A stretch of DNA of 48,569 bases, from NCBI GenBank assembly GCA_964293155.1, contig CAXYYA010000028.1:1-48569 (forward strand). Reading direction: 5' to 3'. Source of the stretch: an uncultured Bacteroidales bacterium. GTDB lineage: Bacteria; Bacteroidota; Bacteroidia; Bacteroidales; Dysgonomonadaceae. The translations under genes were made by a program, and so were the position numbers. Shown in pieces: positions 25,692 to 40,782 of the stretch. The notes under the pieces were generated by a model, which was not told the origin of the DNA, searched no databases, and was given only the letters and a program-made list of their open reading frames with translations. Position 1 is the stretch's first letter, and each line of letters opens with the position of its first letter.

Positions 25692-26948
25692 TTATCTTGG
25701 AGATTGTTTTCCGCCTTCTCTTCTCATTCCGCCACCTTCTTTTTCAACCGGAGTGTTGGACAACTGGTTTTTACGATTCCGTTGTTCATCTTTCACGTTC
25801 TCTTTTATTCCGTCTTTGTGAACATCTTTGCCGAATTCTATTTCAGTGTTTTGATCCCTGAGCAATTGTCTTTGTTCGTTTGTAAGGGATTTAATGAACG
25901 CTTTCTGTCTTTCAGTTCTGCTCAACGTTTTGTCTTCCAGAATGTCGAGTTGCTTTTGGGTCAGTGAGTTTCTGAATCGGTTTTTAGCCGGTTCCGCATT
26001 ATTGTCTGCTGTTTCCCCCTGGCGATTTTGAAGATTCGTGCGTTCCTGATTTTCGGTTTGCAGTTTTGTCTCCGCTTCGTCTAGTAAGTTTTTAATTTCG
26101 TTTAAATGATTTTCCTTTAGCTCATTCGACAAATTCGGTTCTACTTTTAACGGGGTTGGCTCCTGCAACTGAATTTTCTCCTGACTCATCGTTCTCTGCC
26201 TTTCCGGTTCGGGTTTCATTTCGTCTTTTGGAATGACGGCAGGTTTTTCTTCCGTGATATTCATATCTTTTTCTTCTACGGCTACAGTTACTTCCGGAGT
26301 TACCTCAGTAGGATTGTTGTGATGCTGAGAAATAATTTCGAACTGTTTATCCGCCTTCAGCCTTGCTTTCTGACCGGTCGTTATCACAACTTCGTTTTTT
26401 TCGGCAAACTCCACAAGCATCACTTTTCCATGTTCGCAATTCACCTGGTATTCATTTTCGCGAGCCGTTACCAAAAATCGTGTTCCTAAAACCACCGTTT
26501 TGGCCTTTTCAGAAACAACTTCGAACCTACTTCCGCTTTCCACTTCAAAATAAGCTTCGCCGTTTAGCTTTGTTGTCCGGCTGAACTTCCACAGCAAAGG
26601 TTTGTAGCTCAGCGACGAATTGGCGTGCAACACCACCTTGGAATTGTCCGGCAAAAGAAAACTCTTTTCAGCTATCACGGTTTTCACATTCTTTGTATAT
26701 AATGTTGCTGTAACAGCAAATGAAACCAATAAAGCGATCGAGGCTACTGCCGCGTATTTCAACAGTTGGAAATACCGGACGGGCTGAACTTTCTTCCCGG
26801 TTGGGTTAGCATCCAGTTTTGCTTCCATTTCCATCCAAATATCCTCTTTGGACCTGATCCATTGAGGTCGGGTGTTGGAAATGATATCTTCTACTTCCTT
26901 CGAAAATACGATATTTTCTTTTTCGGAATATGTATGTTTAATAATCAT
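25692..26948 (-). CDS. FecR-family anti-sigma factor with an extra C-terminal LTXXQ (Spy/CpxP-like) periplasmic domain
   Basis: 418 aa. The cytoplasmic N-domain is followed by one TM helix (AAVASIALLVSFAVTA) and a FecR domain (VVLHANSSLSYKP...GEAYFEVE...TRFLV). The C-terminus NSLTQKQLDILEDKTLSRTERQKAFIKSLTNEQRQLLRDQ matches the neighbouring secreted protein. Confidence 0.8.
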   Translation of the reverse strand: MIIKHTYSEKENIVFSKEVEDIISNTRPQWIRSKEDIWMEMEAKLDANPTGKKVQPVRYFQLLKYAAVASIALLVSFAVTATLYTKNVKTVIAEKSFLLPDNSKVVLHANSSLSYKPLLWKFSRTTKLNGEAYFEVESGSRFEVVSEKAKTVVLGTRFLVTARENEYQVNCEHGKVMLVEFAEKNEVVITTGQKARLKADKQFEIISQHHNNPTEVTPEVTVAVEEKDMNITEEKPAVIPKDEMKPEPERQRTMSQEKIQLQEPTPLKVEPNLSNELKENHLNEIKNLLDEAETKLQTENQERTNLQNRQGETADNNAEPAKNRFRNSLTQKQLDILEDKTLSRTERQKAFIKSLTNEQRQLLRDQNTEIEFGKDVHKDGIKENVKDEQRNRKNQLSNTPVEKEGGGMRREGGKQSPR

Positions 26949-26957
26949 AGGGTTTGG

Positions 26958-27440
26958 TTATAATAATGATTTTTTCAAAAATTGTAATGCTGCACTCATT
27001 CGTTTTTCTACAGCTTTCACACTTAAGCCCAGACGTTCGGCAATTTCCCAGTATTTCAAGCCCTCAATCCTCGACATTAGAAATACGGCTCGTTGCTTTT
27101 CGTTCAAACTGTTAAGTGCGATTTTATACTTTTCAAGTAACTCTTTGTGACTCAATGTATCTTCTGTCGAAGGCTCGTTACCGTAATAACGGATCGAAGC
27201 TATATAGTTCATTTCCAATACATCACGTCTATATTTACTAACAAACATGTCACCGGCAATTTTATAGAGGAGACGTTTTGCTGTTGTTTTATCTACCTCG
27301 AATTGTTTCTCCCAAAGCCGCATAAAAACCTCCTGTGCTATGTCTGAAGCATCATCCGGCCCCGCACCTCTATAATACAGGTAACCCCGTACCGAATCGA
27401 AGTAGGTATCGAACAAATATTTAAAATCCTCTTTTGTCAA
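26958..27440 (-). CDS. ECF (sigma-70 family) RNA polymerase sigma factor
   Basis: 160 aa. Region 2 is DIAQEVFMRLWEK and region 4 is KYWEIAERLGLSVKAVEKRMSAAL. It ends 9 bp before the anti-sigma gene start. Confidence 0.85.
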   Translation of the reverse strand: MTKEDFKYLFDTYFDSVRGYLYYRGAGPDDASDIAQEVFMRLWEKQFEVDKTTAKRLLYKIAGDMFVSKYRRDVLEMNYIASIRYYGNEPSTEDTLSHKELLEKYKIALNSLNEKQRAVFLMSRIEGLKYWEIAERLGLSVKAVEKRMSAALQFLKKSLL

Positions 27441-27708
27441 AATACAATGTACTTAACTTTGTTAGTATCCGAATGAATAAGCAAATACCCTACAATTTTT
27501 ATTATTATTCTTAATAAATTCCCGAAAATTATGAAAAATCAGGCATTTCAGGAAGATACCCATGAGTTTATTTCAACTTTTTTGACGATAAATAAACCGG
27601 CATTTTAAGTGGCACCGTGCTCAGCTATTTTTTCGCTGAATAAGGAATGGGCAATGCCGCAAGAAACGTTAGTGCCCGGTTTTATAATAAACAATATAAA
27701 TAAAGCGC

Positions 27709-28323
27709 TTATTTCACCAAATTCAAACCATCCTTTGCCGATTGATCCGTTGGCGAGATAATGAGAACCGTGTTGAAAAGCCGTTGCGCATCGTTCTTTT
27801 TCCCGAGGAAATATTTTGTCCAGGCGCTCATCAGCGTAGAGTAATAATCGAACGGATACATCTGTTGCACCAAATCGAAATATTTCTCGGCTTCCATAAA
27901 GTTTTTCCGATAATAATAAATGTTTCCCAGCGCGTAATTTACCCGCGAATTCACCTTGTCCAGCAAAAGAATTTTTTTGTAAACCGCTTCCAATTCATCG
28001 GTTTTTTTCTGCGCTTCCAGCGGATAGCACAGGCCGAGCAGCGCTTCAACCGCTTTAGGAGCTATGTCCACCGCTTTTTGGTAAAATTTCTTGCTGCTTT
28101 CGTAATCTTTGGAAAGATAATACAACCAACCCATTCTCAGAAATTTATGATAATCGAATCCATTCAGGCTGTTTAATTCGCTGATGGCTTTCTGGTAATC
28201 GCCTGACGACTCGTACTGATAACTGTTTGCAAAAACCTGCGAAGGATTCACCTGTGCCGATGCGGTAATTAAGCCCGCCGCCAGCAGAAAGGTGAGTACC
28301 GTTTTTTTAATTAAAAGTTCCAT
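27709..28323 (-). CDS. Secreted TPR-repeat protein
   Basis: 204 aa with a signal peptide. The TPR-like repeats are rich in Y, K, A and L. Its start overlaps the upstream gene stop by 13 nt. Confidence 0.65.
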   Translation of the reverse strand: MELLIKKTVLTFLLAAGLITASAQVNPSQVFANSYQYESSGDYQKAISELNSLNGFDYHKFLRMGWLYYLSKDYESSKKFYQKAVDIAPKAVEALLGLCYPLEAQKKTDELEAVYKKILLLDKVNSRVNYALGNIYYYRKNFMEAEKYFDLVQQMYPFDYYSTLMSAWTKYFLGKKNDAQRLFNTVLIISPTDQSAKDGLNLVK

Positions 28324-29696
28324 TGTAACGCGAGATTTAAAAGATGATTATTATATTTGTATGTTGTGTAATTGGTTGACGAATAGGCGTATCCTTCCCT
28401 TTGTTGCCATTGATATCCGGCCGATAACATGGTTTTTTTGATAAAATAGGAGAGGGAAGCACCCGCAAGGGCTTTAACGGGATCGTACGTGTCGTAAACT
28501 AAAAATGAGTGCCCGGTAATGTAATTTTGATGATTCCCGATGCTGAACGCCCCATCCAGCCACAGCGATTTGGCTAATTTTACACCCAAATTTTGAGAAA
28601 AAACAACTTGTGTGCCTGTCCAGGCGTTTTGGTTGTAGATGGCTGCAAGAGCGGTTGTTCCGTAAAAATCGAGGTTTCCCAGCGGATAATAAGTGAGCGA
28701 TCCTTTTGCCTGATACTGATGTCCGCCGCCGAAATTGGAATAAGCCACGGCAATTTCGGGCAAGGTGTACGCAGAGCGTTTGTTAAGAAATGCCAGCATG
28801 GAGAAAGCCGAAATCGTGTTTCCGGTTGATGCGGTGTAATATATGGAAGGATAATAAAAACCGCCTCCGCCAGGGCCCCCGCCTCCTCCACCCGGGCCGT
28901 ATCCGCCGGCACGCGTTCCCATAGTGGCAGATGCAACAGCGGTCGTAGTGTACGGGATCGCTTTATCAATCTTTTCGATGTTGTAATACGCGCCGGCAAA
29001 TCCCCAGGTAACGTTATTATCCGAGAAAAAATCAAATCCGGCGATCAATTGATGTTGAGACAATCTCTCTTCTTTTACCAATCCCGTGCTGTTTGACCGC
29101 TGAAACTTGGTGTTATACAGTTGATATCCGAGTTTTAGCTTGGCCTTGTCGGAGAGTTTAAACCCAACGCCCAGCGTAGTGAATACCATATCCTGAAACT
29201 GGTTCAGCGAATCGTAGCCCATAAAATTTGAACGCAGATCGGGTTTGTTGTCGTTCGTAAGATAACCGCCTGAGAGCGCAATAAAATCCATCGCCGAAGG
29301 CGAATATCCGATAGCGGCCTGCGTGTGTGGCGCGAGCGATTTGGCAAGTATATCGGCATTGTTTTTCTGGCCGCTCAGCAGGTAGGCGTAATACAGGCTT
29401 TCCAACAGAGCCGGCTCGGTGGAAGTTTCTGCAAGCGTTTTTTTGTAAAATTCCGCCGCTTTGGCATAATTTTTCAGTTCATAATAAGCAATAGCGGTGC
29501 GGTAATTCAGATAATAAAAATCAATGTTTTGCGCCTGCGCCTGTTTGCTGGTCTCAATCAGATTTTTATAATCCTTTTGCAGGTATTGCTGATAGGTAAT
29601 GCTGTCAATGCGGGTTGCTTCCGGGCTTTGTTGCGCCTGTAGCGCAAACGTCCACATCATCATTACCGTTGCGAATGTTATACCCATTCGATACAT
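28311..29696 (-). CDS. Outer-membrane protein with an N-terminal TPR-like region and a C-terminal beta-barrel-like domain with a Gly-rich loop
   Basis: 461 aa with a signal peptide. TPR-like helices are followed by a GGYGPGGGGGGPGGGG tract. The strand pattern alternates aromatic/hydrophobic residues and the protein ends NLALQWNF (terminal Phe). Confidence 0.5.
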   Translation of the reverse strand: MYRMGITFATVMMMWTFALQAQQSPEATRIDSITYQQYLQKDYKNLIETSKQAQAQNIDFYYLNYRTAIAYYELKNYAKAAEFYKKTLAETSTEPALLESLYYAYLLSGQKNNADILAKSLAPHTQAAIGYSPSAMDFIALSGGYLTNDNKPDLRSNFMGYDSLNQFQDMVFTTLGVGFKLSDKAKLKLGYQLYNTKFQRSNSTGLVKEERLSQHQLIAGFDFFSDNNVTWGFAGAYYNIEKIDKAIPYTTTAVASATMGTRAGGYGPGGGGGGPGGGGFYYPSIYYTASTGNTISAFSMLAFLNKRSAYTLPEIAVAYSNFGGGHQYQAKGSLTYYPLGNLDFYGTTALAAIYNQNAWTGTQVVFSQNLGVKLAKSLWLDGAFSIGNHQNYITGHSFLVYDTYDPVKALAGASLSYFIKKTMLSAGYQWQQREGYAYSSTNYTTYKYNNHLLNLALQWNF

Positions 29697-31870
29697 AAGA
29701 CATGTTTTTTAGTGTTAATTTCCATTCTGTTTTTTATTACCGTGATAGTTGATTCTTTCACCGGCATTTTTATATTGAACGACTTAGCGTCTATAATGCT
29801 TTGATATACAATTTTTTCAGGATAAAAAATATGATCCGATTCCGTTAATTGCGAACGGTAATTTATGGTTGTGAAAATAACAAAAGGCGCCAAAAAATCC
29901 TGAAACCAACGCGTTCCGAAGGGGTGTTCCTTGGTAAGCGGTATTTTATCGGTAACGGAGATCTCTTTTTCGTTGGACAGCAATAATTTAAAGCAACTAC
30001 GGTAAAACAAATACAACGGCGATGATTTTCTTCCTTCAAAATCGGTAAAATAGAACATGGTGCCATCGTTTTCCACGTACGCCACGGCTTTCGATTTTTC
30101 GCAACGGATGTAGGTTTTGTTGTATTCGTCGGTAGCAATTGTCCAGGGATAATTTTCGTTGTCGTAGGTAACTTTCAGCAACCGGCCCGGTTTGCCTTCG
30201 AAAGCATCTTGCGCCAGCAACGAAGGAACTACGTTGAAGATCGTAGTATCCTGTTTCGGAACCTCGCCGATGTGCAAGAGCGGCTTACCGGCTGTTTTTT
30301 CAAAGAAATAACCCATGGGGTACGCATGTGTTGCCGACCCGATTTCGGGCGACAACTGCACCTGAAAATGAAGGTGCGGCTCCGGCGAACGTCCCGAATT
30401 GCCGCATGCGGCAAGTACGGTTCCTTTTGTTACATAATCGCCGGTTCGCACGTTAAAACTGTCTTTTTTAAGGTGGCTTAGCTGCGAGTATAACCCGTTC
30501 AAATGATTGATAATGATCGTATTTCCCCAATTCTTTTTCGTGTTTACATCATTTATTTCATTGTCTTCGGTAATGTTGCTGATCATGTACACATAACCGT
30601 CGGCCGGAGCCAACACCGGTTTGTTGTAACAGTAAAAATCTTCTTTCTGCGCACACCGGCCGAAACACGTTTTTCCTTCTTCGTCCGTGATCATAAAATC
30701 CAACGCTTTTCCCCATGCGCCCAGGTGGGTTATTGTACCGTTGTAGCCCTGCGTTACACGCCATTCTCCCAAAAAAGGCAATTGCATTTTAAACAGCATG
30801 TTTTGTGCGAAACGCTGCATGTAATTCACGTTTTTATATACCGTTTTCTCGGGATTATAATATTGAATATACGGAAAAATAAAGAACCGGCTAAAGCTGC
30901 GTTGTTTGAGAATGAACAGTACGAGAATGGATAAAAGACTGAATGATAATGTGTAAGAAGACAGCCCGGTATCCGATATCAAACTCTCCACGCTGGCATA
31001 AAACAGAAACAGGGCGGGCGTGAGGCCAATGACCAGTATGTAGCTGTAGATGTTGGGGATGATAAAGAAGCTTCCGATTGCCATTCCCCAGAAAATGTAG
31101 TTAACGCCAGCCAGATCCTGCGTGAGTTCTGCGATATCCACGCCAAGCAATTTACTGATGATAAATGCAAAGAAAAATCCAAAAAATGCTACCGTGGATT
31201 TGATGCGTGAGTGAAAAAGCAATGCAACGGCTATGATGATGCCGACTAACACGCTGTCGGTAAAGAAAATGGATGCCAATGTTTTAAAATAATAAAACAA
31301 CATGGGCGGCAAGTGCGCATTATCGAGTGAGTGGACGAAAGTGTACCACGGTACTTTCATTTGCCCGGCCAACACGATGGTGAAACGGTCGAACGGAATA
31401 ATGTACTCAATGTTCGTGAACGATTTTACCGAAAGATCAACGATGAACAACGTGAAAACAAACGGCAGAGTAAGCACGGGAATATCGTGCTTCGCAAAAA
31501 CCGATTCGAGCCATACCGTGAACATGAATACCAGAATAACCGATAAAACAAAAAGAATAATGAACGAGCCGTTCACGTAAAATTTGTAAACCAGACTCAA
31601 CCCGACAAAAACGGCGTTAAATCCGTACAATCCGCTCTTGATCCTTTTCTTCGAAAATCCGAGCCCGTGCGCGATGATGTTCGTCAGAACCACAGCCGAA
31701 AGTCCGCCCAATCCCAGCCGGATGTCCAGCATGCTAAGCACCAGCAAGATGATCGCTAACCACCTGCTTTGCGAGAAAAATATCATGGCATAGCTGTTCA
31801 GCGTGCCATCGAGATACATCAACGCGTATGATTTGAGACTTTGTTTCATTTGTTTATGATTTCGGGACAA
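29678..31870 (-). CDS. Polytopic membrane protein (urea-transporter-like duplicated domain) fused to a C-terminal M23/LytM zinc metallopeptidase domain
   Basis: 730 aa. The first ~330 aa hold about 10 TM segments with internally repeated GLYGFNAVFVG / LAGVNYIFWG and LTLPF motifs. The M23 motifs are HLGAWGKALD ... GNSGRSPEPHLHFQV. The stop overlaps the downstream gene start by 19 nt. Confidence 0.7.
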   Translation of the reverse strand: MSRNHKQMKQSLKSYALMYLDGTLNSYAMIFFSQSRWLAIILLVLSMLDIRLGLGGLSAVVLTNIIAHGLGFSKKRIKSGLYGFNAVFVGLSLVYKFYVNGSFIILFVLSVILVFMFTVWLESVFAKHDIPVLTLPFVFTLFIVDLSVKSFTNIEYIIPFDRFTIVLAGQMKVPWYTFVHSLDNAHLPPMLFYYFKTLASIFFTDSVLVGIIIAVALLFHSRIKSTVAFFGFFFAFIISKLLGVDIAELTQDLAGVNYIFWGMAIGSFFIIPNIYSYILVIGLTPALFLFYASVESLISDTGLSSYTLSFSLLSILVLFILKQRSFSRFFIFPYIQYYNPEKTVYKNVNYMQRFAQNMLFKMQLPFLGEWRVTQGYNGTITHLGAWGKALDFMITDEEGKTCFGRCAQKEDFYCYNKPVLAPADGYVYMISNITEDNEINDVNTKKNWGNTIIINHLNGLYSQLSHLKKDSFNVRTGDYVTKGTVLAACGNSGRSPEPHLHFQVQLSPEIGSATHAYPMGYFFEKTAGKPLLHIGEVPKQDTTIFNVVPSLLAQDAFEGKPGRLLKVTYDNENYPWTIATDEYNKTYIRCEKSKAVAYVENDGTMFYFTDFEGRKSSPLYLFYRSCFKLLLSNEKEISVTDKIPLTKEHPFGTRWFQDFLAPFVIFTTINYRSQLTESDHIFYPEKIVYQSIIDAKSFNIKMPVKESTITVIKNRMEINTKKHVLCIEWV

Positions 31871-31949
31871 AAAACAAAGACATACGGAACAAGACTTTGC
31901 GTTGCATTATTCAACACCGGCCTGATGACGGTAAATTGCGTTGCTATTT

Positions 31950-33305
31950 TCAAAGTTTAAACCCTTTCAGATGTTCCGGTGTAACCTCCTGTTGTACAAT
32001 GGATTCCACGGTTTCGCTTTTGCGAATAAGATGCACTTTCCCCGTGGTATCAATCATGACCACATTGGGACGTAGCGTAATGAATTGCATCCATTGTGTC
32101 ATGTTGTAAGCGCCCACTTCGTGCACCACCACGCGGTCGTCCTTTTTTAACAGCGGTAAGCTAACGCTTTCGCGCAGGCAGTCAATGTTCATGCAAAGCG
32201 GCCCGTACAGCGCCATTTCTTCGGCATGCTGTGTGAAATCCTGCGCTGGCGATACTTTGTGATTGTACCAAAACGATGTGAACATGATATTTACCCCGAT
32301 ATCGAGCACGGTAGCCCGACGGCCGTTGGCCAGGCGTTTGGTTGCAAGCACGGAACCGAGCAGATAACCCGCTTCGTCAATCAATGCGCGTCCGGTTTCG
32401 AGGATCAGCAAGGGCAATTCATCGGGTTTAAAGCCGAATTGCAAAATGGTTCCGGTGATGGCTTCGGCATAATCGTCGAACGTAGGAATAACATCAGCAC
32501 CTTGCAGATACGAACCTTTGAGTGTGTTGGACGAACAGAATCCGCCACCCATATCAATGTATTTTATCTTTACGCCGGTTTTGTTTGCCGTATTTTGCGC
32601 CAGTTCGCACAGTTTGCGCGCCGCAACGGCATAAGCGTTGGCGGTGAGCATGTAGGTGCCGATGTGGGTGTGTAATCCTTCCAACTGAAGGTTTGGCTGC
32701 GTAATGATCTTCATGATCGCATTCCACGCCTGCCCGCTTTCGTAGTTGAAGCCGAACCTGTCCCACTGCGGATAAACGCCGGTGTCCATATTTACGCGAA
32801 TGGCAACACGCGCTTTTTGTGAAGTTCCTTCCAAAATCTCGATAAGCGAATAGAGCTCGTCGAAATGATCAATGTGGATGAGCGAACGGTTTTCCACGGC
32901 TATTTTCAGGTCATCGGCCGATTTATCAGGGCCGTTGAAAATGATCAGATTGCCCGGAACGCCGTTGCGAAGGGCTTTTTGGTATTCAAAACCCGATACG
33001 ACTTCCGCCCAGCTTCCTTCCTGATGGAAAACGTTGCAAACGGCATCCAGATAGTTGGTTTTGTAGCTCCAGGCGAATTGCACTTTCGGATAGCGCATTT
33101 TAAAGGCTTTTTGTGCTTTTTGATAGGTTTGGCGGATGGTTTTTTCGCTGATTACGAAGAGCGGCGAGCCGTATTCATCCATTAACCCGGCAACTGCCAC
33201 GCCATCAATTTGTTTCACAGGTATGTATTCGGTTCTGCTGCCGAATTTATTCATCAGGTTTGTGTTCAGTTTCTGAATCACAGGACGTTCGTAGGTTGGT
33301 TTCAT
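31950..33305 (-). CDS. Fold-type III PLP-dependent decarboxylase (Orn/DAP/Arg decarboxylase family)
   Basis: 451 aa. The PLP lysine motif is AWSYKTN, the glycine motif is DMGGGF, and beta/alpha-barrel plus C-terminal beta-domain features are present. Confidence 0.8.
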   Translation of the reverse strand: MKPTYERPVIQKLNTNLMNKFGSRTEYIPVKQIDGVAVAGLMDEYGSPLFVISEKTIRQTYQKAQKAFKMRYPKVQFAWSYKTNYLDAVCNVFHQEGSWAEVVSGFEYQKALRNGVPGNLIIFNGPDKSADDLKIAVENRSLIHIDHFDELYSLIEILEGTSQKARVAIRVNMDTGVYPQWDRFGFNYESGQAWNAIMKIITQPNLQLEGLHTHIGTYMLTANAYAVAARKLCELAQNTANKTGVKIKYIDMGGGFCSSNTLKGSYLQGADVIPTFDDYAEAITGTILQFGFKPDELPLLILETGRALIDEAGYLLGSVLATKRLANGRRATVLDIGVNIMFTSFWYNHKVSPAQDFTQHAEEMALYGPLCMNIDCLRESVSLPLLKKDDRVVVHEVGAYNMTQWMQFITLRPNVVMIDTTGKVHLIRKSETVESIVQQEVTPEHLKGFKL

Positions 33306-33391
33306 ATTGCCTTTGACCCCTGTAGTGGGATTTATTTAGTTATTATGAGCGTCCGACGGCTTGAAGTCCGTCTGACGCATATTTCAGACGG

Positions 33392-34447
33392 TTATCGAGC
33401 ATATTCCCCTGTTGTGGAAATCTGCTGAAATTCCGATATATCCACGATCATATCGTACGCGTAGCGGATAAATATTTTGCCGCTTTCGTACTCCGTGAAT
33501 GGTAGTACATCCTCGCTCAACGCCATTTTCACCAAAGCTTCGGCGTGATTTTGGCCGCAGCCGATAGCAAGGTACATCCAGGCGGGAAAACGGGGATTCA
33601 TTTCCAGCAGATAATATTCGTCTTTTTTTGTTTTGATAAACTCCAGTTCGCAACCGCCTTTCCATCGGCTGTTCTCAATTACGCGACGAGAAATCTCCAT
33701 GAGTTTATCGTCTTCCAACGAAACGCCCGACCATGCTTTTCCCTTGTCCGTGATGTACAATTTTCGCATCGGCACCGCGCCGATGCATCGGCCTTTTCCG
33801 TCGCCGATGGCGGTAACGTTTACTTCCGTTCCGGTTACAAACTCCTGGACGATAATGGGATATCCCCATTTGGCGACGATTTTGTAAAAATAAGAGCTGG
33901 CCTGCTCGTAGTTCGAAGCAATGTAGGCATCGTAGTATCGCCCTTTGATCACCATGGGATAATCGAGGTCATCTTCCAGTTTTTTAATTTCCGAAACCTG
34001 ATTAATGATATGGCTTTCCGGTACTTTTATATCGTATTTTTCGCCGAATTTATTCAGTTCCGATTTGTGGCGCTCTTCAAATTGCTCATGCGATGGCAGG
34101 AAAGTGGCTATCCCAAGCTCCGATTTTAATTCGTGTTGAATTTTGATGAAATTGTGCAATTCGGCATCAAAATTCGGGATGAGCACGTCAATTTTTTCCT
34201 GGCTCACGATGTATTGCAGCCGCTCTTTGAGCATGGCTGAGCCCGCGGTGGGCAAAGGCAGCTGATAGACTTTGTCCACCAATTCGTGCATATAAATTCC
34301 CGGTTCCAGCGTTTCGTACGATAAGCCGACAATGCGCACATCGAACGCCGAACTGTCTTTCAATGCACGAATAACGGGAATTCCCGGCCCGGGGCTGTCA
34401 ATGTTGTTGAGCCCAGTGACCGCTACGGTAATTTTTCGCTTATTCAT
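33392..34447 (-). CDS. ATP-grasp family carboxylate-amine ligase
   Basis: 351 aa. The ATP-grasp core (KGRYYDAYIA, IIVQEFVTGTEVNVTAIGDG, CELEFIKTKKDEYYLLEMNPRF) is present. The start overlaps the PqqD-like gene by 8 nt. Confidence 0.75.
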   Translation of the reverse strand: MNKRKITVAVTGLNNIDSPGPGIPVIRALKDSSAFDVRIVGLSYETLEPGIYMHELVDKVYQLPLPTAGSAMLKERLQYIVSQEKIDVLIPNFDAELHNFIKIQHELKSELGIATFLPSHEQFEERHKSELNKFGEKYDIKVPESHIINQVSEIKKLEDDLDYPMVIKGRYYDAYIASNYEQASSYFYKIVAKWGYPIIVQEFVTGTEVNVTAIGDGKGRCIGAVPMRKLYITDKGKAWSGVSLEDDKLMEISRRVIENSRWKGGCELEFIKTKKDEYYLLEMNPRFPAWMYLAIGCGQNHAEALVKMALSEDVLPFTEYESGKIFIRYAYDMIVDISEFQQISTTGEYAR

Positions 34448-34685
34448 TTTCGGATAGTTGGTAGCTTTTTAACATATCCAGAAAATCGTTGAGGTCTTTC
34501 TCGGCCGTGTGGGCATCGAGTTCGTATTCATCCTGAAGTGCTTTCAAAACGGTTTCGTTACTTTCACCGTTTTTTAATTGTTGAAGAACGAAAACGCCGG
34601 TTTGGTTTACACTGAAACTGTCGCCTGTAAGTGGATTAAAGATAAATCCGTTTTCGCTGATGGCTATGTTTTTTCTAATGTTCAT
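34440..34685 (-). CDS. PqqD-family protein (RiPP recognition element-like peptide chaperone)
   Basis: 81 aa. FNPLTGDSFSVNQTGVFVLQQLKNGESNETVLKALQDEYELDAHTAEKDLNDFLDMLKSYQL matches the PqqD/RRE winged-helix pattern. Confidence 0.7.
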   Translation of the reverse strand: MNIRKNIAISENGFIFNPLTGDSFSVNQTGVFVLQQLKNGESNETVLKALQDEYELDAHTAEKDLNDFLDMLKSYQLSENE

Positions 34686-34719
34686 AGGACGTATATCTGT
34701 TAATGGGTTATTTCCTATG

Positions 34720-35328
34720 TTACGGTTGTACGATATCGGAGAACTGTGACAAATTTAATACTTTTGGTTGATAATCAATGCCTCTGCGCGATAAATTTCG
34801 TACAAACGCCCGCAAATGGTTCTCCGAAGCGCGCAAGAGGTTGGAATAAATCCGTTGGATATCGGGATTGTCGGTTTTCTGCAAGTGCGATTGCAGGTCT
34901 TCGATATCCTGTTCTTCGATCAACGCTCCGGCTTGCAGCGCCTCGATGAGCGTTGTGCCTTTGGTGAGCTCGGTGTACATTTTCTGTAACTCACGATTGG
35001 TAAACACGCCTTCCGCTTTCGCGAGGTCTTTTAACCCATACGTATCCACAAGCCACATCATGGCGTTCTGGTGCACCGTTTCGCTACGCGAAATATTTCG
35101 GAAGATAGGGATGCTATACTGCCGGGCGTAAAACGTATAAACGTCGTGGGCAAGTTTTTCTTCTTCGCGCATGTACTCAATGCTTTGGATGTCGGCCTTC
35201 GTCAGATTTTGCGTTGAAGCCGGTATTCCCATCGTCTTATTCTGTGTGGTTTTAGCCCCATCGGCAGCTTGGGGCAACAAAAGTATTGCCCCTGCCGCGA
35301 TCAGAATGAATAAATATTTTGTTTTCAT
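34720..35328 (-). CDS. Exported DUF2202-like (ferritin-like superfamily) protein, paralog 1
   Basis: 202 aa with a signal peptide. YMREEEKLAHDVY...SETVHQNAM...LRASENHLRAF is a ferritin-like four-helix pattern of E/H ligands. Confidence 0.6.
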   Translation of the reverse strand: MKTKYLFILIAAGAILLLPQAADGAKTTQNKTMGIPASTQNLTKADIQSIEYMREEEKLAHDVYTFYARQYSIPIFRNISRSETVHQNAMMWLVDTYGLKDLAKAEGVFTNRELQKMYTELTKGTTLIEALQAGALIEEQDIEDLQSHLQKTDNPDIQRIYSNLLRASENHLRAFVRNLSRRGIDYQPKVLNLSQFSDIVQP

Positions 35329-35332
35329 TTTT

Positions 35333-36025
35333 TTATGTGTTTATGATAGCGTTGAAATCATCGTTGCTCAATAATTGAGGTTGATATGCAATACCGTTGA
35401 ATTTGAGATTTGCGACAAAGGCTTTCAAATGAAACTGTGAAGCACGGAGTAGATTACCGTAAATTCTTTTGATAAACGGGTTTTCTGTTTCGGCTATTTC
35501 TCTTTGAAGATCAATAATATCGTGTTCTTCGATAAAAGCGCCGGCTTTGTAAGCATCTACAACTGTAAGGGCTTCGGTTGTAAGCTTTGTGTATAAATTT
35601 TGCAATTCTTCGATGTTAAATACCCCCGGTACCGTTTCGGCGGGAGTCTCAATTTTGTAGAGATTAATAAGCCAGGCGATAGCTTTTCCGTGTGCTATCT
35701 CGCTTTTGGAGATGTTGCTGAACACGGGTCTGGCGAATTTTTCGTTAAAATACACATACACATTATTGGCTAATTTTTCTTCTTCGCGCATGTACAGGAT
35801 GCTGTTTATTTCACTTTCGGTGAGTGGCGCGAGTTGCGTATTTGTCAACAAACAAAGCGAATCGGTGGTTGCAGCCAGTGTTGCATCAAGTCGCGTAGTT
35901 GAAACTGCGTTTATCAATGCGGCTTGTTCGGCATTTTCTTCCGGTGAATTTACGCTGTTCGCTTCACAACCGAAAAGCAAAATTGCAAGAAATGCCACGA
36001 CGGAAATTTTTTGATAAGTTTTCAT
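35333..36025 (-). CDS. Exported DUF2202-like (ferritin-like) lipoprotein, paralog 2
   Basis: 230 aa with a lipoprotein signal (LLFGCE). YMREEEKLANNVY...SEIAHGKAI...LRASQFHLKAF parallels the neighbour. It lies 4 bp upstream of paralog 1. Confidence 0.6.
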   Translation of the reverse strand: MKTYQKISVVAFLAILLFGCEANSVNSPEENAEQAALINAVSTTRLDATLAATTDSLCLLTNTQLAPLTESEINSILYMREEEKLANNVYVYFNEKFARPVFSNISKSEIAHGKAIAWLINLYKIETPAETVPGVFNIEELQNLYTKLTTEALTVVDAYKAGAFIEEHDIIDLQREIAETENPFIKRIYGNLLRASQFHLKAFVANLKFNGIAYQPQLLSNDDFNAIINT

Positions 36026-36079
36026 AATGAAAAAGTTGGTTTACTGTGATTAAGTTAATGAGATAAGCGTTTTGTAAGA

Positions 36080-36109
36080 AAAAATGGGGAGCGAATCCCC
36101 ATTTTTTTG
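36080..36109. terminator. Intrinsic terminator after the EF-hand-repeat gene
   Basis: AAAAAATGGGGA-GCGAA-TCCCCATTTTTTT. Confidence 0.6.
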
Positions 36110-36123
36110 TGGTTGGTGCGTGG

Positions 36124-36687
36124 TTATTTTGTGGTTTCCCTACGGTCGCAAATACCGTTTTTATTGGCGTCCACAAAATTTACCGCACTGCCTTTTCCAT
36201 TCCGAAGGCCGGTGCCTTTCCCTGTACCGCGTCCCTGGCGCGGTGTTCCGTTTTCGAAGTTGTCACAAATGCCGTCTTTGTCGGCATCTACGAAATTTGC
36301 TCCACCACCTCTGCCGTTACGCAGTCCGTTGCCATAGCCTTGTCCGCGTCCTCCACGGGGAGTTCCGTTTTCGAAATTGTCGCACACGCCATCTTTATCG
36401 GCATCCACAAAGAAGCGTCCTTGTCCTCTGCCGTTGCGTAATCCCTGGCCTTTGCCTTGTCCGCGGCCGCTACCGTCGAGCAGTCGTTGTTTGCCGTTGG
36501 CATTCGGATTTCCGGGTGTTCCGTTCTCGAAATTATCGCAAACGCCGTTGTTGTTTTTGTCCACAAATGCAGGTCCGGTTTGAGCGGTTTTCGCCGTTTC
36601 CTTTGCTGCCTGATTTTGATTTTGGGCGGTTGCTAATCCTATGGTGGCAACCAGCGCCATTGCAGTGATAAATACTTTTGTTTTCAT
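36124..36687 (-). CDS. Secreted protein with four canonical EF-hand calcium-binding loops separated by Gly/Arg-rich linkers
   Basis: 187 aa with a signal peptide. There are four repeats FVD(A/K)(D/N)K(D/N)G(V/I)CDNFENGTP, and each matches the EF-loop D-x-D-x-D-G-x-x-D-x-x-E and contains one Cys. The linkers are GRGQGKGQGLRNGRGQG. Confidence 0.6.
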   Translation of the reverse strand: MKTKVFITAMALVATIGLATAQNQNQAAKETAKTAQTGPAFVDKNNNGVCDNFENGTPGNPNANGKQRLLDGSGRGQGKGQGLRNGRGQGRFFVDADKDGVCDNFENGTPRGGRGQGYGNGLRNGRGGGANFVDADKDGICDNFENGTPRQGRGTGKGTGLRNGKGSAVNFVDANKNGICDRRETTK

Positions 36688-36717
36688 AATAATCTTATTT
36701 TTAATTGTTTATTTAAT

Positions 36718-37293
36718 TTATCTGGTTTCGTTCCAATCGCGTCCGTAGCGATGCCGGTATCCGCGTCCCATACCGAGACTGTCGGTTCGGTTATATCCGT
36801 ATCCGTACCCGCGACGGGCATTCACCGTTTCATCGCGATACAACGGTAGGAATGCTCTTTCTAATTGAGCGCACTGCGCGTCGTTGCACGCCGATTTTAT
36901 CTTCAGGTAGAAATCGTTTGTAAGCTTTTTCAGTTCTGCGTGATGATTTCCGATGTGATCCGATAACGCATTTAATTTTGTTTCGTCGGGTTTCGGTTTG
37001 TTCAACTCCATGAACATTTCGTTTTTCAGCGAATCCATTTCGTAAATCAGCAGGTTGGCACGGGGTTGAAATTCCCGGTTCGCTGCGCGAAAAACATCCA
37101 TCTGATCATTGTCGAATCCCAGCCTTTGCCGAAAATACCTTCCGGTGAGCGGGGGCTGGCCTTCGTCAATAACAATTGCTGTGTTATCGTCTTTTTCCTG
37201 CTGATTGTGATAGACGATAGTTCCGATGGTTGTCAGGTTCAGCACCACAAGCAGTGCAATTACCCACATCATTATTTTATTCGTCTTATTCAT
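36718..37293 (-). CDS. Membrane-anchored periplasmic Spy/CpxP/ZraP-like protein (periplasmic heavy-metal sensor family)
   Basis: 191 aa. An N-terminal TM anchor is followed by a helical domain (QMDVFRAANREFQ...HHAELKKLTNDFYLKI) and a Tyr/Gly/Arg-rich tail. It overlaps the upstream gene by 8 nt. Confidence 0.5.
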   Translation of the reverse strand: MNKTNKIMMWVIALLVVLNLTTIGTIVYHNQQEKDDNTAIVIDEGQPPLTGRYFRQRLGFDNDQMDVFRAANREFQPRANLLIYEMDSLKNEMFMELNKPKPDETKLNALSDHIGNHHAELKKLTNDFYLKIKSACNDAQCAQLERAFLPLYRDETVNARRGYGYGYNRTDSLGMGRGYRHRYGRDWNETR

Positions 37294-37579
37294 AATCGTC
37301 GAAATTATAATAGCCTAAATTCTCGATCTGACTGTCGTTTATGTTCATCGTAAACTCGTGAGAAACGCTTTTCTGGTAACTGTTACCGATGCTTACGCCT
37401 AAAAATGCAACGGCAGCAAGGCTGGCAGCCACAACCACAGTTTGCCAAACGGGCGTTCTGCGACGCTCCGGTTGTTGCCTTTTTTCGATTTCGGCCATCA
37501 CCCGCGTACTCAGGAACGGATTATGTTCCGTTTGCTTTTCGCGTTTGATGAAATCGTCTATGTACTGTTCCGTTTTCAT
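37286..37579 (-). CDS. Small single-pass membrane protein, putative anti-sigma factor
   Basis: 97 aa. A cytoplasmic N-terminus is followed by one TM helix (VWQTVVVAASLAAVAFLGVSI). It lies immediately downstream of an ECF sigma gene (36-bp gap). Confidence 0.4.
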   Translation of the reverse strand: MKTEQYIDDFIKREKQTEHNPFLSTRVMAEIEKRQQPERRRTPVWQTVVVAASLAAVAFLGVSIGNSYQKSVSHEFTMNINDSQIENLGYYNFDDYE

Positions 37580-37615
37580 TTTTTGTTCGTTTTATAGGTT
37601 AGACATTTGTATTGA

Positions 37616-38161
37616 TTATTTCCTACGGTCATATTCTAATTTTTTTTGCAGAGTGCTTTTTGCACGTTGTAAAAGTTGTTCCACAGCGCCTTCCGATTTT
37701 TTCATGACGGCGGCAATTTCTTTCTGCGGTAATTCTTCGTATTTACTCAGGATGAAAGCTGTTCGTTGCGAATCGGGCAGGGAATTGATGGCGTTTTTTA
37801 TCCGCTTGTCCCGTTCCGATTGTTCCAATCGTTCCAACGGCGTCTTTTCCTCACTCTGTTTGTGAAAGATGTTTTCCAACGATTCCACCACGCGGTTCTT
37901 CTTTTTTCGATTCACAAAATTGATACTCGCGTTTACGGTAATCCGGTACAGCCATGTAACAAATTGGGCTTCGCCCTTGAAATCGGGCAACGATTGATAT
38001 ATTTTAATGAAAACTTCCTGCGTGATATCTTCCGCATCTGCTTTGGAGTGCACAAAACCCAACGTCGTTCGGAACACCATACCCTGGTATTTCTCCATAA
38101 GTTCTTTAAAGACAATGGTGTTACCTGAAATTATTTCTTGTATGAGTTGCTCGTCCGACAT
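37616..38161 (-). CDS. ECF (sigma-70 family) RNA polymerase sigma factor
   Basis: 181 aa. Region 2 is DITQEVFIKIYQ and region 4 is LPQKEIAAVMKKSEGAVEQLLQRA. Confidence 0.85.
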   Translation of the reverse strand: MSDEQLIQEIISGNTIVFKELMEKYQGMVFRTTLGFVHSKADAEDITQEVFIKIYQSLPDFKGEAQFVTWLYRITVNASINFVNRKKKNRVVESLENIFHKQSEEKTPLERLEQSERDKRIKNAINSLPDSQRTAFILSKYEELPQKEIAAVMKKSEGAVEQLLQRAKSTLQKKLEYDRRK

Positions 38162-38392
38162 GTGCAGCAGTTCTTTTTCGTTTGTTTAGACAACGAAGAC
38201 CGGTTTTTCCTACGGTTGGTGATAATTTAACATTGCAATTTCGTTAAAAAATTTGGAACTAAAAAAAGTTTTTTTATTTTTGCAAAAGATAATGTTCTAT
38301 CGAACAACCGATATCATGATGTGTTAGTTTCTCTTTCGACTGCCGTCTCAGGCAGGTATTTTTTTAGCGCTACTGATTTAAACCAACCAGCT

Positions 38393-39664
38393 ATGAAAAC
38401 GAATTTTTTTATTTTTGGCATAATATCCCTTATGCTTGTATCCTGTTATCAGGAATATCCTGCACATTTTAGGCAGTATATTGATGTGAATGCTTCCATT
38501 GATGGGCTGAAAACCCGCGCCACAAATGCCTCATGGGAAGCGAATGATGCCATCGGAATTTATATGAAAATCAGTGGAGAGGGTTTGTCTGTACCAGCTT
38601 TGGCTGAAAATTCGAAATATATTACCGACGGAACGTCCGCTTTTCAGTCTGCTACGGCCGATGGAGCTATCAGCTTTCCGCTCGACGGCACTGATGTGGA
38701 TTTCATCGCGTATTATCCACATCAAACAACAATCACGGACTTAACGTATCCGGTAAATGTTTCCGATCAAAGCAGCCTGCCGGCTATTGACTTGTTGTAT
38801 TCAAACAATGCCGCGGGGCTAAATTCTCAAAATCCGGATGTTGGGCTGACTTTCGTTCACCAATTATCGAAGATAAACGTGCTAATTATGCCCGAAGATG
38901 CAACGTCTGATTTAAGCGGTTTAACCGTAACGATGACCGGTGTGGGAACCTCCGCAACATTTTCATTAGCCGACGGAACGCTTTCGGCGCCCGCTATCAC
39001 GGGTAATGTCGCATTCAATATGAGTTCCGACGGACGCACTGCTCAGGCTATTCTATTGCCGATGGCCGATTTCACGGGTAAATCGCTTATTATCGCTTTT
39101 GGATCCAATTCTTACGAATTCCCGTTGACTCAAGGGGTAAATATCACTTCTTTCGAAAAAGCAACGCAATACACGTATAACGTTACGCTTTCATCGCAAG
39201 CACTGTCGGTTTCCAACGCAACCATCACCGATTGGGTTACCGGCCCGTCGGAAAATGTGATCATCGGAAGCGTCGGAACGGCGCCTGTAACCGGCGGAAC
39301 ACTCGATGATCCGTTTACTATTGAGGAGGCAATTGCCAATCAGGGGTTGATGGATAGATGGGTAAGAGGGTTTATTGTGGGTTACTATAAAACGACTTCC
39401 TATAAATCATTTACCACAAGTGTAGATGATGTGACGAGCACCACCAACATTGCTTTAGCAACAGTTAGCACAGAGACCGATTCAACCAAAACGTTTCCTG
39501 TACAATTGTCTGCTACCCAAATCAGAGATACACTCAATCTGCTGGATCATCCTGAAAATTTGGGCAGAGAAGTTCTGGTACGAGGAGATTTGGCAACTTA
39601 TCAATACATTGCCGGAATGAAGGCGGCTGATGGAGCAGTAATTAACGGAGATACCATTCCCTAA
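38393..39664 (+). CDS. Cell-surface lipoprotein, fimbrillin-like (FimA/Mfa-type N-domain)
   Basis: Lipoprotein signal MKTNFFIFGIISLMLVSC. The Thr/Ser-rich beta architecture resembles Bacteroidales fimbrillin-family proteins. The track ORF begins at a GTG at 38321, and the Met at 38393 is preferred. Confidence 0.45.
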   Translation: MKTNFFIFGIISLMLVSCYQEYPAHFRQYIDVNASIDGLKTRATNASWEANDAIGIYMKISGEGLSVPALAENSKYITDGTSAFQSATADGAISFPLDGTDVDFIAYYPHQTTITDLTYPVNVSDQSSLPAIDLLYSNNAAGLNSQNPDVGLTFVHQLSKINVLIMPEDATSDLSGLTVTMTGVGTSATFSLADGTLSAPAITGNVAFNMSSDGRTAQAILLPMADFTGKSLIIAFGSNSYEFPLTQGVNITSFEKATQYTYNVTLSSQALSVSNATITDWVTGPSENVIIGSVGTAPVTGGTLDDPFTIEEAIANQGLMDRWVRGFIVGYYKTTSYKSFTTSVDDVTSTTNIALATVSTETDSTKTFPVQLSATQIRDTLNLLDHPENLGREVLVRGDLATYQYIAGMKAADGAVINGDTIP

Positions 39665-40782
39665 TTTACGTGATACCCCTGGCTATGCATTTCCGATGCA
39701 CGAAAGAGGGTGTATTTTTCCTCGTTTAGCGGATAATCCCAGCAACCGAGGCTGTGATAGATTTCGCCGCCGAAACCCGATTTGAATTTATACAACCCGT
39801 ACATCGGGTGTTCGGGATCGGGCGTGGGCGATATGCCGAACATATCATACTGGGTGCAGCCTGCGGCTTTCGATAGCCGGATGGCTTCCCACTGCAACGC
39901 GTATGCAGCCATCAGGTTCCGGTTTTCCGACGAAGAGGCGCCATACAAATACGAACCCCTGTTTCCCGAAATTACCAGAAACATGGCTGCGAGCGGTTTT
40001 TGGTTATATTCCGCAATCAAAAGACGCACACGCGCCGGTGAACGTGTATTATCGGCTTTTGCCGAAAGCACGGCTTCAAAGTATTTTATATCGTTTAGCA
40101 GGATACCGTTTCGTGCCGCCGTCTCTTTGTAGAGTTCATACCACGTGGAAATTTCCTCCATCCCTGCCGATTTTACGGTTGCGCCGCGACGTTGTGCCAG
40201 ACGGATGTTGTAGCGGGTTTTCGGTTTCATGCGTTGCAGGATGCTTTCTTCGTCTTGTCTTAGGTTCAGATAAACGGTACTTGCCGGAAGTATGTTGGAA
40301 AGCGCTTTTTTGAAATTCCAGTTTTCCGTATTGAAATTGAACCGGAATTCTTGTGTGCGTAATTCCGGTTCGCCTTTCCATAAGCCGTTTTCATCAAAAT
40401 TATCGGCTTCTTTTGTCCAGTATGATTCCCAACAAAGATCATAGCGAATGAGGATGCAGTTATTCGGTAAATACGGGCGAATGCTTTCCGATAATTCTTC
40501 CAGAAAAAGGCTTTGAAATTCATCGGATGGTTCCAGTTCAGGGCCGTAAGGCACATACGCCACAGAATGATTCCTGTCGATTTGTTGCAGGACGATCAGC
40601 AGGTCTGAAACCAGCAATTTATCGCTCCTGGAATGAAAAATATCCGACTCCCTCGATTTAAACCCGACAGCAAGCGTTTCGGCGCCCAGCTTGTTCTTTA
40701 CTTCCGACCAAAATGCCGTCTGTTGCAGAATGGGCGTTTTGTTCAGTTCGTCCGTGTCTTTTTTCCGAATATCTAACAGCAT
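39661..40782 (-). CDS. FemAB-family aminoacyltransferase (GNAT fold)
   Basis: 373 aa. YLYGASSSENRNLMAAYALQWEAIRLSKAAGCTQYDMFGI matches the FemAB/lipid II peptidyltransferase family core. Confidence 0.75.
   Translation of the reverse strand: MLLDIRKKDTDELNKTPILQQTAFWSEVKNKLGAETLAVGFKSRESDIFHSRSDKLLVSDLLIVLQQIDRNHSVAYVPYGPELEPSDEFQSLFLEELSESIRPYLPNNCILIRYDLCWESYWTKEADNFDENGLWKGEPELRTQEFRFNFNTENWNFKKALSNILPASTVYLNLRQDEESILQRMKPKTRYNIRLAQRRGATVKSAGMEEISTWYELYKETAARNGILLNDIKYFEAVLSAKADNTRSPARVRLLIAEYNQKPLAAMFLVISGNRGSYLYGASSSENRNLMAAYALQWEAIRLSKAAGCTQYDMFGISPTPDPEHPMYGLYKFKSGFGGEIYHSLGCWDYPLNEEKYTLFRASEMHSQGYHVN

Follow-up and report, generated by a model that had tools for sequence, protein, structure and literature searches.

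The window analysed here is a stretch of 48,569 nucleotides (nt) from an uncultured, Petrimonas-like Bacteroidales bacterium of the Dysgonomonadaceae (contig CAXYYA010000028.1, positions 1 to 48,569). Its minus strand carries a gene block that starts with the gene for an extracytoplasmic function (ECF) sigma factor, continues with genes for membrane and exported proteins and runs into the genes for a PqqD-family protein, an ATP-grasp ligase and a pyridoxal phosphate (PLP) decarboxylase. The block consists of two separable units that lie head to tail, and this two-unit anatomy is well established. Unit A (about 34720-38214) comprises the ECF sigma module and its cargo, and unit B (27709-34685) is a six-gene operon. 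We compared both with about 200 related loci overall, including a set anchored on the ATP-grasp protein that comprises 80 genome loci with 10-kb flanks, each searched with all the window proteins. The window ATP-grasp protein itself is 98% identical to a protein of a metagenome-assembled Petrimonas sp. genome. The features of unit A in the order in which they would be transcribed are as follows.

38186-38214, minus strand: P1, ECF-type promoter CGTAGGAAA-N13-TGTCTAA, some 50 nt ahead of the sigma ATG
37616-38161, minus strand: ECF sigma factor, 181 amino acids (aa) (Pfam Sigma70_r2 and Sigma70_r4_2; NCBIfam sigma70-ECF)
37599-37627, minus strand: P2, second copy of the ECF-type promoter, located in the sigma gene at its 3' end, with the anti-sigma ATG some 20 nt further downstream
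37286-37579, minus strand: short single-pass membrane protein, anti-sigma-like, 97 aa (one predicted transmembrane segment, residues 47-65)
36718-37293, minus strand: membrane-anchored Spy/CnrX-type protein, 191 aa (PF13801 Metal_resist; N-terminal transmembrane segment)
36124-36687, minus strand: secreted Gly/Arg-rich repeat protein of the MJ0753_N / DUF6520 family (signal peptide, four motifs)
36079-36108, minus strand: intrinsic-terminator-like hairpin GGGGA-TTCGC-TCCCC followed by T6, seen directly in the sequence
35333-36025, minus strand: DUF2202 copy a, lipoprotein-type signal (LLFGC) (Pfam DUF2202, E = 1e-38)
34720-35328, minus strand: DUF2202 copy b, signal peptide (Pfam DUF2202, E = 5e-43, and a Rubrerythrin match)

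The features of unit B follow.

34750-34778, minus strand: candidate housekeeping (Bacteroidetes-type) promoter TTGA-N17-TAAATTTG, upstream of the PqqD gene, a tentative assignment
34440-34685, minus strand: PqqD-family protein, 81 aa, first gene of the operon (Pfam PqqD, E = 1e-12)
33392-34447, minus strand: ATP-grasp ligase, 351 aa (Pfam ATPgrasp_Ter and CPSase_L_D2)
31950-33305, minus strand: fold-III PLP decarboxylase of the diaminopimelate (DAP) decarboxylase family, 451 aa (Pfam Orn_Arg_deC_N and Orn_DAP_Arg_deC)
29678-31870, minus strand: UT/M23 membrane protein, with a urea-transporter-like (UT) domain, an M23 peptidase domain and an unassigned C-terminal domain of 225 aa (Pfam UT, E = 1e-44; Peptidase_M23, E = 2e-16)
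28311-29696, minus strand: exported 461-aa protein with N-terminal TPR (weak matches) and the C-terminus ...LALQWNF
27709-28323, minus strand: 204-aa TPR protein encoded by the final operon gene (Pfam TPR_2 and TPR_1)

The open reading frames (ORFs) and the spacings quoted in the original prediction, which was made from the sequence alone, were all found on the minus strand by a direct ORF check, and the family labels that it gave to the block proteins were borne out by Pfam and NCBIfam. The sigma gene is followed after a gap of 36 bp by the anti-sigma-like gene, which overlaps the Spy-like gene by 8 nt, and a further 30 bp separate the Spy-like gene from the repeat-protein gene. The two DUF2202 genes are 4 bp apart and copy b lies 34 bp from the PqqD gene. 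Within unit B the PqqD and ATP-grasp genes overlap by 8 nt, gaps of 86 bp and 79 bp lie on the two sides of the decarboxylase gene (towards the ATP-grasp and the UT/M23 gene, respectively), the UT/M23 gene overlaps the 461-aa protein gene by 19 nt, and the latter overlaps the 204-aa protein gene by 13 nt. The gene count had to be corrected, because 11 genes had been placed within 31950-38161 where there are nine, and 11 is reached only if the UT/M23 gene and the next gene are counted. The conserved unit in fact reaches a twelfth gene, p204, at 27709-28323, and what had been described as a trio of PqqD, ATP-grasp and decarboxylase is in truth a six-gene operon, as is evident from its conserved order across Bacteroidota.

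The ECF module and its cargo

At least nine genomic contexts (L081, L083, L085, L087-L090, L094 and L096), which were found from the contigs of homologues of the Spy-like and repeat proteins, contain unit A but not the PqqD operon. The order sigma, anti-sigma, Spy-like protein, repeat protein is kept in 9/9 of these independent contexts, and in five of the nine (L081, L083, L085, L089 and L096) a DUF2202 gene comes after the repeat-protein gene. Since DUF2202 stands after the repeat gene in modules that lack the PqqD operon, it is a part of the ECF unit, not of the enzyme group. Conservation of the block, which the original prediction had named as a check, therefore holds in part: the ECF unit is kept in order in the contexts examined, but the ECF unit and the PqqD operon each occur alone. 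A second sample, which was anchored on the promoter and is independent of the operon, came from metagenomes, and its modules were clustered by identity of the Spy-like protein at 90%. Ten clusters have PqqD/ATP-grasp genes within 600 bp after the module, 11 are autonomous, one is mixed and 12 are too short to classify.

The region 3' of the operon in the window (23913-27440, minus strand) encodes a second ECF sigma factor (p160), a FecR-like protein (p418) and the proteins p213 and p276. Homologues of p160, p418, p213 and p276 (66%, 40%, about 41% and 45% identity) come directly after the autonomous module of L085 (L085:10939-14922), homologues of p160 (79%) and p418 (67%) after the module of L214 (L214:5332-6582), and a p160 homologue (48%) after that of L111 (L111:2468-3027). 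Because the p160 cluster follows modules without the operon, the operon looks like a cassette that some loci carry between DUF2202 and p160 and others lack. The flanks of the autonomous modules (L081, L083, L085, L089, L090 and L094) carry genes for thioredoxin, a rhodanese-fused pyridine-nucleotide disulfide reductase, DsbD and a metallo-beta-lactamase (MBL) fold hydrolase, and also genes for a TehB-like methyltransferase, NikR, cation efflux and methionine sulfoxide reductase. These neighbours hint that the signal for the module is thiol, metalloid or metal stress, and the invariant Cys in each repeat of the repeat protein fits this hint.

The promoters of the module define its directly supported regulon. 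The pattern CCGTAGGAAAA-N12-TGTCTAA stands in register before the sigma gene in 19/21 loci, 51-77 nt (mostly 51-58) before the ATG, and these 19 sites were used to build a position weight matrix (PWM) with a threshold of 8 bits. When the whole window was scanned on both strands, the PWM gave only two matches above the threshold, P1 with 32 bits (38215) and P2, which is outside the training set, with 19 bits (37628). A simple pattern search that allowed up to two mismatches returned these two sites again, both of them exact, where 0.02 were expected. A site equivalent to P2 is present in nearly all the related modules, including the autonomous ones. An exact-pattern scan of metagenome contigs yielded 120 loci with 140 sites, and 87 of the 140 lie before homologues of the sigma or the anti-sigma gene while none (0/140) lies before a repeat-protein, DUF2202 or PqqD gene. 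Additional regulon members were looked for in the same scan and were rejected, as the leftover matches were short spurious ORFs or chance sites. From the position of P1 we infer that the sigma module is self-regulating, and the promoter positions together give a directly supported regulon that consists of sigma and the anti-sigma, Spy-like and repeat-protein genes.

The sigma factor contains sigma-2 and sigma-4 domains only, scores 120 bits against NCBIfam sigma70-ECF (cut-off 42.9) and falls in one family with the sigmas of all the related modules. The next gene had been described as coding for a small anti-sigma-like transmembrane protein. The one predicted transmembrane segment agrees with this description but the zf-HC2 part of the longer homologues is missing. 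Its homology to the 142-aa zf-HC2 anti-sigma of L085 (E = 2e-16) covers residues 47-136 of the latter, and in the distant modules the protein at position +1 has 140-143 aa, with a zf-HC2 match in L081, L083 and L085. The Spy-like protein matches Metal_resist with 30.4 bits, a small margin over the gathering cut-off of 29.2. It has two LTxxQ-like segments, LGFDNDQ and C-x3-Q, and a Gly-rich tail. In an alignment of 15 sequences H118, C136, E96 and D103 are invariant, with no recognisable CnrX ligand pattern, and no relative of solved structure was detectable by sequence.

The repeat protein carries four D-x-[DN]-x-[DN]-G-[VI]-C-D-x-x-E motifs, each with one Cys, that are joined by Gly/Arg-rich linkers. 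It had been called a four-EF-hand protein, and at the level of motifs the four loops are indeed present, but Pfam score, invariance and structure prediction all speak against an EF-hand. EF-hand_1 of Pfam matches the loop only, at E = 0.4; the invariant positions are D1, C8 and D9 only, so that position 8 is a Cys where an EF-hand has a hydrophobic residue, and position 12, an invariant Glu in EF-hands, is variable; and AlphaFold, run with 33 sequences, returned a disordered chain without helix-loop-helix at a predicted local distance difference test (pLDDT) score of 44. A canonical EF-hand identity was thus rejected. The precomputed Pfam family of the protein is PF27309 MJ0753_N, and DUF6520 is the name given to some relatives. 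The motif is present in 2-4 copies among the relatives (P0210-P0328); most of the close relatives have 145 aa and three motifs, and the window protein with 187 aa and four motifs is the longest of them. In the modules examined the repeat-protein gene lies 3' of the Spy-like gene, with L008 and L010 as the exception. In these two Paludibacteraceae loci the repeat-protein gene and the hairpin stand directly before PqqD, about 700 nt upstream of the ATP-grasp gene, and the genes for sigma, anti-sigma and Spy-like protein are all absent further upstream; this is the sole case seen of the repeat protein without the module.

The terminator that had been proposed after the repeat-protein gene is present in the sequence as a hairpin with a run of six T (-15.4 kcal/mol, z = -5.4). 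A generic promoter and terminator scan gave the same counts as shuffled sequences and missed this hairpin, and the region 27000-39000 had no match to Rfam families.

The sequences place both DUF2202 proteins in the ferritin-like four-helix bundle family, with predicted metal positions. Copy b matches the archaeal protein MJ0754 (PDB 3q4o), which represents DUF2202 among solved structures, with E = 9e-35, and the E, ExxH, IEE and SxxH positions of DUF2202 (PF09968) are conserved while the Glu of the fourth helix is replaced by Ser. DUF2202 is found in 7/80 of the ATP-grasp-anchored loci and there may be zero, one or two copies. In Petrimonas sulfuriphila (L003 and L004) about 100 bp from the 3' end of DUF2202b survive as a non-coding remnant at a distance of about 70-200 nt before PqqD, which shows that DUF2202b was lost in this species, and the remnant retains a candidate promoter-like segment, TTGA-N17-TAAATTTA. 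The DUF2202 proteins of L081, L083, L085 and L089 have Gly/Lys/Asn-rich tails that are similar to the repeat protein. In the searchable papers DUF2202, MJ0754 and MJ0753 have only incidental mentions.

Two genes lie just upstream of the sigma gene, one for a Mfa-like fimbrillin/DUF6359 protein (38321-39664, plus strand) and one for a FemAB-family peptidyltransferase (39661-40782, minus strand). The adjacency of either to the block is not kept in related loci.

The six-gene operon and its upstream regulators

Unit B is an ancient, uncharacterised Bacteroidota envelope operon. Its genes in the order PqqD, ATP-grasp, decarboxylase, UT/M23, p461 and p204 were matched in 79, 80, 78, 70, 55 and 61 of the 80 loci; much of the shortfall is due to contig ends, and a few full-length loci have no p461 match. 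The order is kept in Bacteroidales, Chitinophagales, Flavobacteriales, Cytophagales and Kapaibacteria, and the ATP-grasp protein is 68-72% identical across Bacteroidota classes. In most Bacteroidota the operon occurs without the ECF unit. Among the 80 loci the genes of the ECF unit are found only within the Bacteroidales subset (19-23 of its 28 loci), where they stand immediately before PqqD in constant order and strand. A gene for a LytTR response regulator is present within 4 kb upstream of the operon in 23 other loci, 14 of which also have a LytS-type kinase gene, and CCGATACATTT-N10-CCGATACATTT direct repeats with a 21-bp period lie about 64-90 nt before PqqD in 13 loci (L032, L043, L053, L060, L064, L072 and others). 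In the non-Bacteroidales lineages the operon appears to be under a LytTR two-component system. The LytTR genes and the repeats in other lineages mark the position upstream of PqqD as a regulator slot that is filled differently.

The N-terminal segment of the PqqD protein, KNIAISENGFIFNP..GDSFS.N, is nearly invariant and the C-terminal tail is variable. The last residue is E or D in 56/79 homologues and A, Q, K, G or V in the others. A role as a carrier of the LysW/LysX type was considered and is not supported, because the acidic C-terminal attachment residue is not conserved and the tail is variable. None of 14 diverse loci had a conserved small ORF either ahead of the operon or inside it, and in many loci the gaps are too short to hold one. 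A profile search of the ATP-grasp protein against solved structures returned generic carbamoyl phosphate synthetase (CPS) and biotin-carboxylase domains only. For the decarboxylase the nearest solved structures are, in order, FslC (1e-54), LysA and BtrK (3e-27). The 86-bp gap between these two genes (33306-33391, minus strand) contains a stem-loop, CGTCTGA-AATATGCG-TCAGACG, without a T-run, and in relatives this gap measures 2-175 bp.

The start of the UT/M23 protein is probably the ATG at 31849, since the relatives align from residue 8. The ...LALQWNF end of the 461-aa protein suggests that it is outer-membrane-barrel-like; a single-sequence structure prediction for it had a pLDDT of 35 and was discarded. 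There was no acyl carrier protein among the Pfam matches of the operon, and neither a siderophore synthetase of the type that is independent of non-ribosomal peptide synthetase (NIS) nor a conserved receptor gene was found in it. The candidate housekeeping promoter of unit B is present only in the window and its closest relatives, L001-L004.

Does the ECF module control the operon?

The original prediction had tentatively grouped the whole block under the ECF factor. What can be retained is the unit of sigma, anti-sigma, Spy-like and repeat-protein genes with its two promoters; in the window neither DUF2202 nor PqqD is preceded by an ECF promoter. A search for such promoters upstream of 36025 and of 34685 had been proposed as a check, and the PWM found none above 8 bits at either place. 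On the other hand, the same-strand adjacency to the PqqD operon recurs well outside the window, in the Bacteroidales subset given above, in 10/22 classifiable metagenome clusters and in Flavobacterium-like loci. We have therefore weighed how the adjacency is best explained.

Several observations suggest, at the level of sequence, that unit A helps control unit B. In some lineages the junction between the module and PqqD is 1, 18, 27 or 33 bp long with no hairpin, which leaves no room there for a terminator or a promoter. Where the junction is tight we also infer that DUF2202 is expressed with the module by co-transcription. In the Flavobacterium-like loci L037 and L057 PqqD comes directly after genes for a sigma factor, a membrane protein of 88 aa and a Spy-like protein, with a gap of 24 bp in L037, and in L061, the upstream part of which is cut off, the Spy-like gene adjoins PqqD. 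The third gene of these loci is homologous to the window Spy-like gene (hhalign 96.9%, E = 1.8e-10). At the 3' end of sigma these loci also have a promoter copy, though a weaker one. The adjacency spans families whose sigmas are 40-75% identical. In L079 (9712-9743, plus strand) a promoter match of 24.8 bits, CCGAAGGAAAATATTTCTTTTGACGTCTAATG, stands 48 nt ahead of PqqD, and no sigma gene lies within 10 kb of the site; it is the only strong match outside ECF modules in 1.24 Mb. Weaker promoter look-alikes that end in CGTTTAA were seen in L076-L078.

The explanation that best accounts for the whole, and that we judge a little more probable than improbable, is that the ECF module with its cargo occupies the regulator slot of the six-gene operon and feeds the operon by read-through. 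A periplasmic signal would release the sigma factor, which would then transcribe from the near-identical promoters P1, for its own gene, and P2, for the anti-sigma gene. The P2 transcript would span the anti-sigma, Spy-like and repeat-protein genes before it meets the hairpin terminator, and read-through of the hairpin probably carries stress-induced transcription into DUF2202 and unit B, where it would add to the weak housekeeping promoter. For the organism of the window itself, regulatory coupling by read-through of a leaky terminator is somewhat more probable than its absence. As to the function of unit B, analogy with FslC, BtrJ/BtrK and PvsA/PvsE makes it probable that the ATP-grasp enzyme couples an amino acid to a partner on the PqqD protein, either a carboxylate or a peptide, and that the decarboxylase next decarboxylates this amino acid, and the three envelope proteins (UT/M23, TPR/barrel-like and TPR) would process or export the product. 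Extended to the phylum, this would be an envelope pathway in which a PqqD protein that acts outside ribosomal-peptide biosynthesis presents the partner, the product is exported via the UT-like/M23 protein, and the pathway is a stress output whose regulator is swapped between ECF and LytTR; we offer this extension tentatively and hold it to be doubtful.

A good deal weighs against the read-through explanation, and much of it is accounted for if the two units are neighbours only, that is, if the ECF stress unit ends at the hairpin or after DUF2202 and the PqqD operon has a promoter of its own and is regulated independently, the adjacency being inherited gene order that means nothing for regulation. 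A hairpin equivalent to that of the window lies 3' of the repeat-protein gene in about 12/22 related genome loci, and a conserved hairpin with a T-run argues for separate transcripts. No ECF-type promoter stands before the repeat-protein, DUF2202 or PqqD genes in the genome and metagenome loci that carry the module, and in the window PqqD has a candidate housekeeping promoter of its own 72 nt upstream. The module is autonomous in about half of the distinct lineages (11/22 clusters, in addition to the nine or more genomic contexts), and the operon is alone or with LytTR regulators in most Bacteroidota. A rough neighbour-joining tree shows autonomous and operon-linked sigmas mixed, with the Flavobacterium-like ones basal. 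Moreover, the module is also kept beside the unrelated p160/p418 sigma/FecR pair, so that conserved adjacency alone is no proof of regulation. The parts of the proposed mechanism have their own gaps: the window anti-sigma-like protein corresponds to the last two thirds of its longer homologues and has no Cys/His motif, the Spy-like protein has a single invariant His and a single invariant Cys from which a CnrX-type ligand set is not recognisable, neither a precursor peptide nor a carrier-type tail was found for PqqD, and no literature on the six-gene operon was found in the searchable papers. What mere neighbourhood leaves without explanation is that the adjacency persists across families with such divergent sigmas and appears again in Flavobacterium-like loci, that junctions of 1-33 bp in several lineages are too short for a terminator or promoter, and that an ECF-type promoter lies directly before PqqD in L079. 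We consider inherited neighbourhood possible, though on balance improbable.

Two other explanations give the operon a specific product. One is that it is a metal-chelator system, in which the operon makes and exports a small polycarboxylate/amine metallophore in the manner of the vibrioferrin or rhizoferrin pathways, the ECF module is the metal sensor, and the DUF2202 and repeat proteins buffer periplasmic metal. The closeness of the decarboxylase to the rhizoferrin enzyme FslC favours this, as does an ATP-grasp ligase next to such a decarboxylase, which recalls vibrioferrin; the module contains a PF13801 'heavy-metal resistance' protein, and NikR, cation-efflux and TonB-receptor genes are found near autonomous modules. 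ECF281-type groups are also tied to metal stress (PMC7826278). However, the operon lacks both the NIS synthetase and a conserved receptor gene, the metal ligands of CnrX are not evident in the Spy-like protein, the neighbours of the autonomous modules point at least equally to thiol, sulfur or redox stress, and such high conservation of the ATP-grasp protein throughout the phylum is unusual for siderophore genes, which makes a chelator unlikely. The other is a ribosomal-peptide pathway, with the repeat protein as a multi-core precursor that is bound by PqqD and modified by the ATP-grasp enzyme and the decarboxylase, and with the terminator setting an excess of precursor. The 2-4 near-identical short motifs of the repeat protein would suit such a precursor, many Bacteroidales loci have the repeat gene and its hairpin directly before PqqD, and in L008 and L010 the repeat gene stands beside PqqD in the absence of sigma. 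This is nevertheless very improbable, because the enzymes are cytoplasmic but the repeat protein carries a signal peptide of the classical type, the repeat gene accompanies the Spy-like gene in at least nine contexts that lack the enzymes, and the enzymes are found without the repeat protein in 52/80 loci with no conserved small upstream ORF. The repeat protein as precursor of PqqD/ATP-grasp is thus strongly disfavoured by both its distribution and its signal peptide.

Whichever function it serves, unit B with its regulators offers a testable handle on an uncharacterised and apparently important envelope function of Bacteroidota. The handle is a practical one, as there are cultured Petrimonas and Proteiniphilum strains, a defined promoter motif and a sigma/anti-sigma switch, and if the coupling of the ECF module to the operon by read-through is true it also gives the conditions under which the uncharacterised enzymes are expressed.

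Comparison with known systems

An ECF sigma module with a Spy/CnrX-type partner is already known. In ECF281, a group that derives from ECF20 and is related to CnrH, a zinc-finger anti-sigma is encoded at position +1 and a PF13801 protein at +2, and groups of this type have been linked to metal stress (Casas-Pastor et al. 2021, PMC7826278). The window module resembles ECF281 and CnrYXH in its gene architecture, with sigma followed by a membrane anti-sigma at +1, a PF13801 protein at +2 and a seemingly autoregulated promoter, and L081, L083 and L085 resemble ECF281 further in having a zf-HC2 anti-sigma at +1. The window module differs from ECF281 in that its +1 protein is without the zinc-finger (HxxxCxxC) segment, from CnrYXH of Cupriavidus metallidurans in gene order and in having no efflux pump attached, and from both in its extra conserved cargo, the MJ0753_N repeat protein and DUF2202. 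With Spy, CpxP and ZraP the Spy-like protein of the window shares the Metal_resist match and the two LTxxQ-like segments, and its Gly-rich tail recalls ZraP. Unlike them, it is anchored by a transmembrane segment and not soluble, and it is paired with an ECF sigma factor and not with a two-component system. The pairing of DUF2202 with the repeat-protein family, which is recurrent in the modules, is that of MJ0754 and MJ0753_N, the archaeal adjacency of MJ0753 and MJ0754 being read from gene numbering alone. In contrast to the MJ0754/MJ0753 pair, the window proteins are both exported and lie by an ECF sigma gene, and DUF2202 is duplicated into a lipoprotein and a soluble form.

For unit B the closest parallels are BtrJ/BtrK of butirosin, PvsA/PvsE of vibrioferrin and FslC of rhizoferrin biosynthesis, where a ligase and an enzyme of the DAP-decarboxylase family are encoded together; vibrioferrin biosynthesis is known to combine an ATP-grasp ligase with a decarboxylase of this kind. 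FslC, an N-citrylornithine decarboxylase, and BtrK use amino acids in already conjugated form as substrates, and it is to such enzymes that the window decarboxylase is nearest. Unlike BtrI/J/K and the NIS systems, the window operon has a PqqD-family protein and has no acyl carrier protein and no NIS synthetase, and unlike the Btr and Pvs pairs its two enzymes are encoded together with two TPR proteins and the UT/M23 membrane protein. A possible likeness of the 461-aa protein to the PgaA/BcsC type is drawn from weak TPR matches and the C-terminal ...WNF signature. An 81-aa protein of PqqD fold that is translationally coupled to a modifying enzyme resembles the recognition elements of ribosomally synthesized and post-translationally modified peptide (RiPP) pathways. 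In contrast to RiPP clusters, no precursor gene is conserved beside PqqD in 80 loci, and the operon is phylum-wide and housekeeping-like instead of patchy. Three things have no counterpart that we could find in the searchable literature, namely, the fixed cargo of a Cys-bearing disordered MJ0753_N repeat protein together with DUF2202, the recurrent fusion of the module to a six-gene operon whose ATP-grasp protein is about 70% identical throughout the phylum, and the interchangeable ECF and LytTR regulators upstream of that operon.

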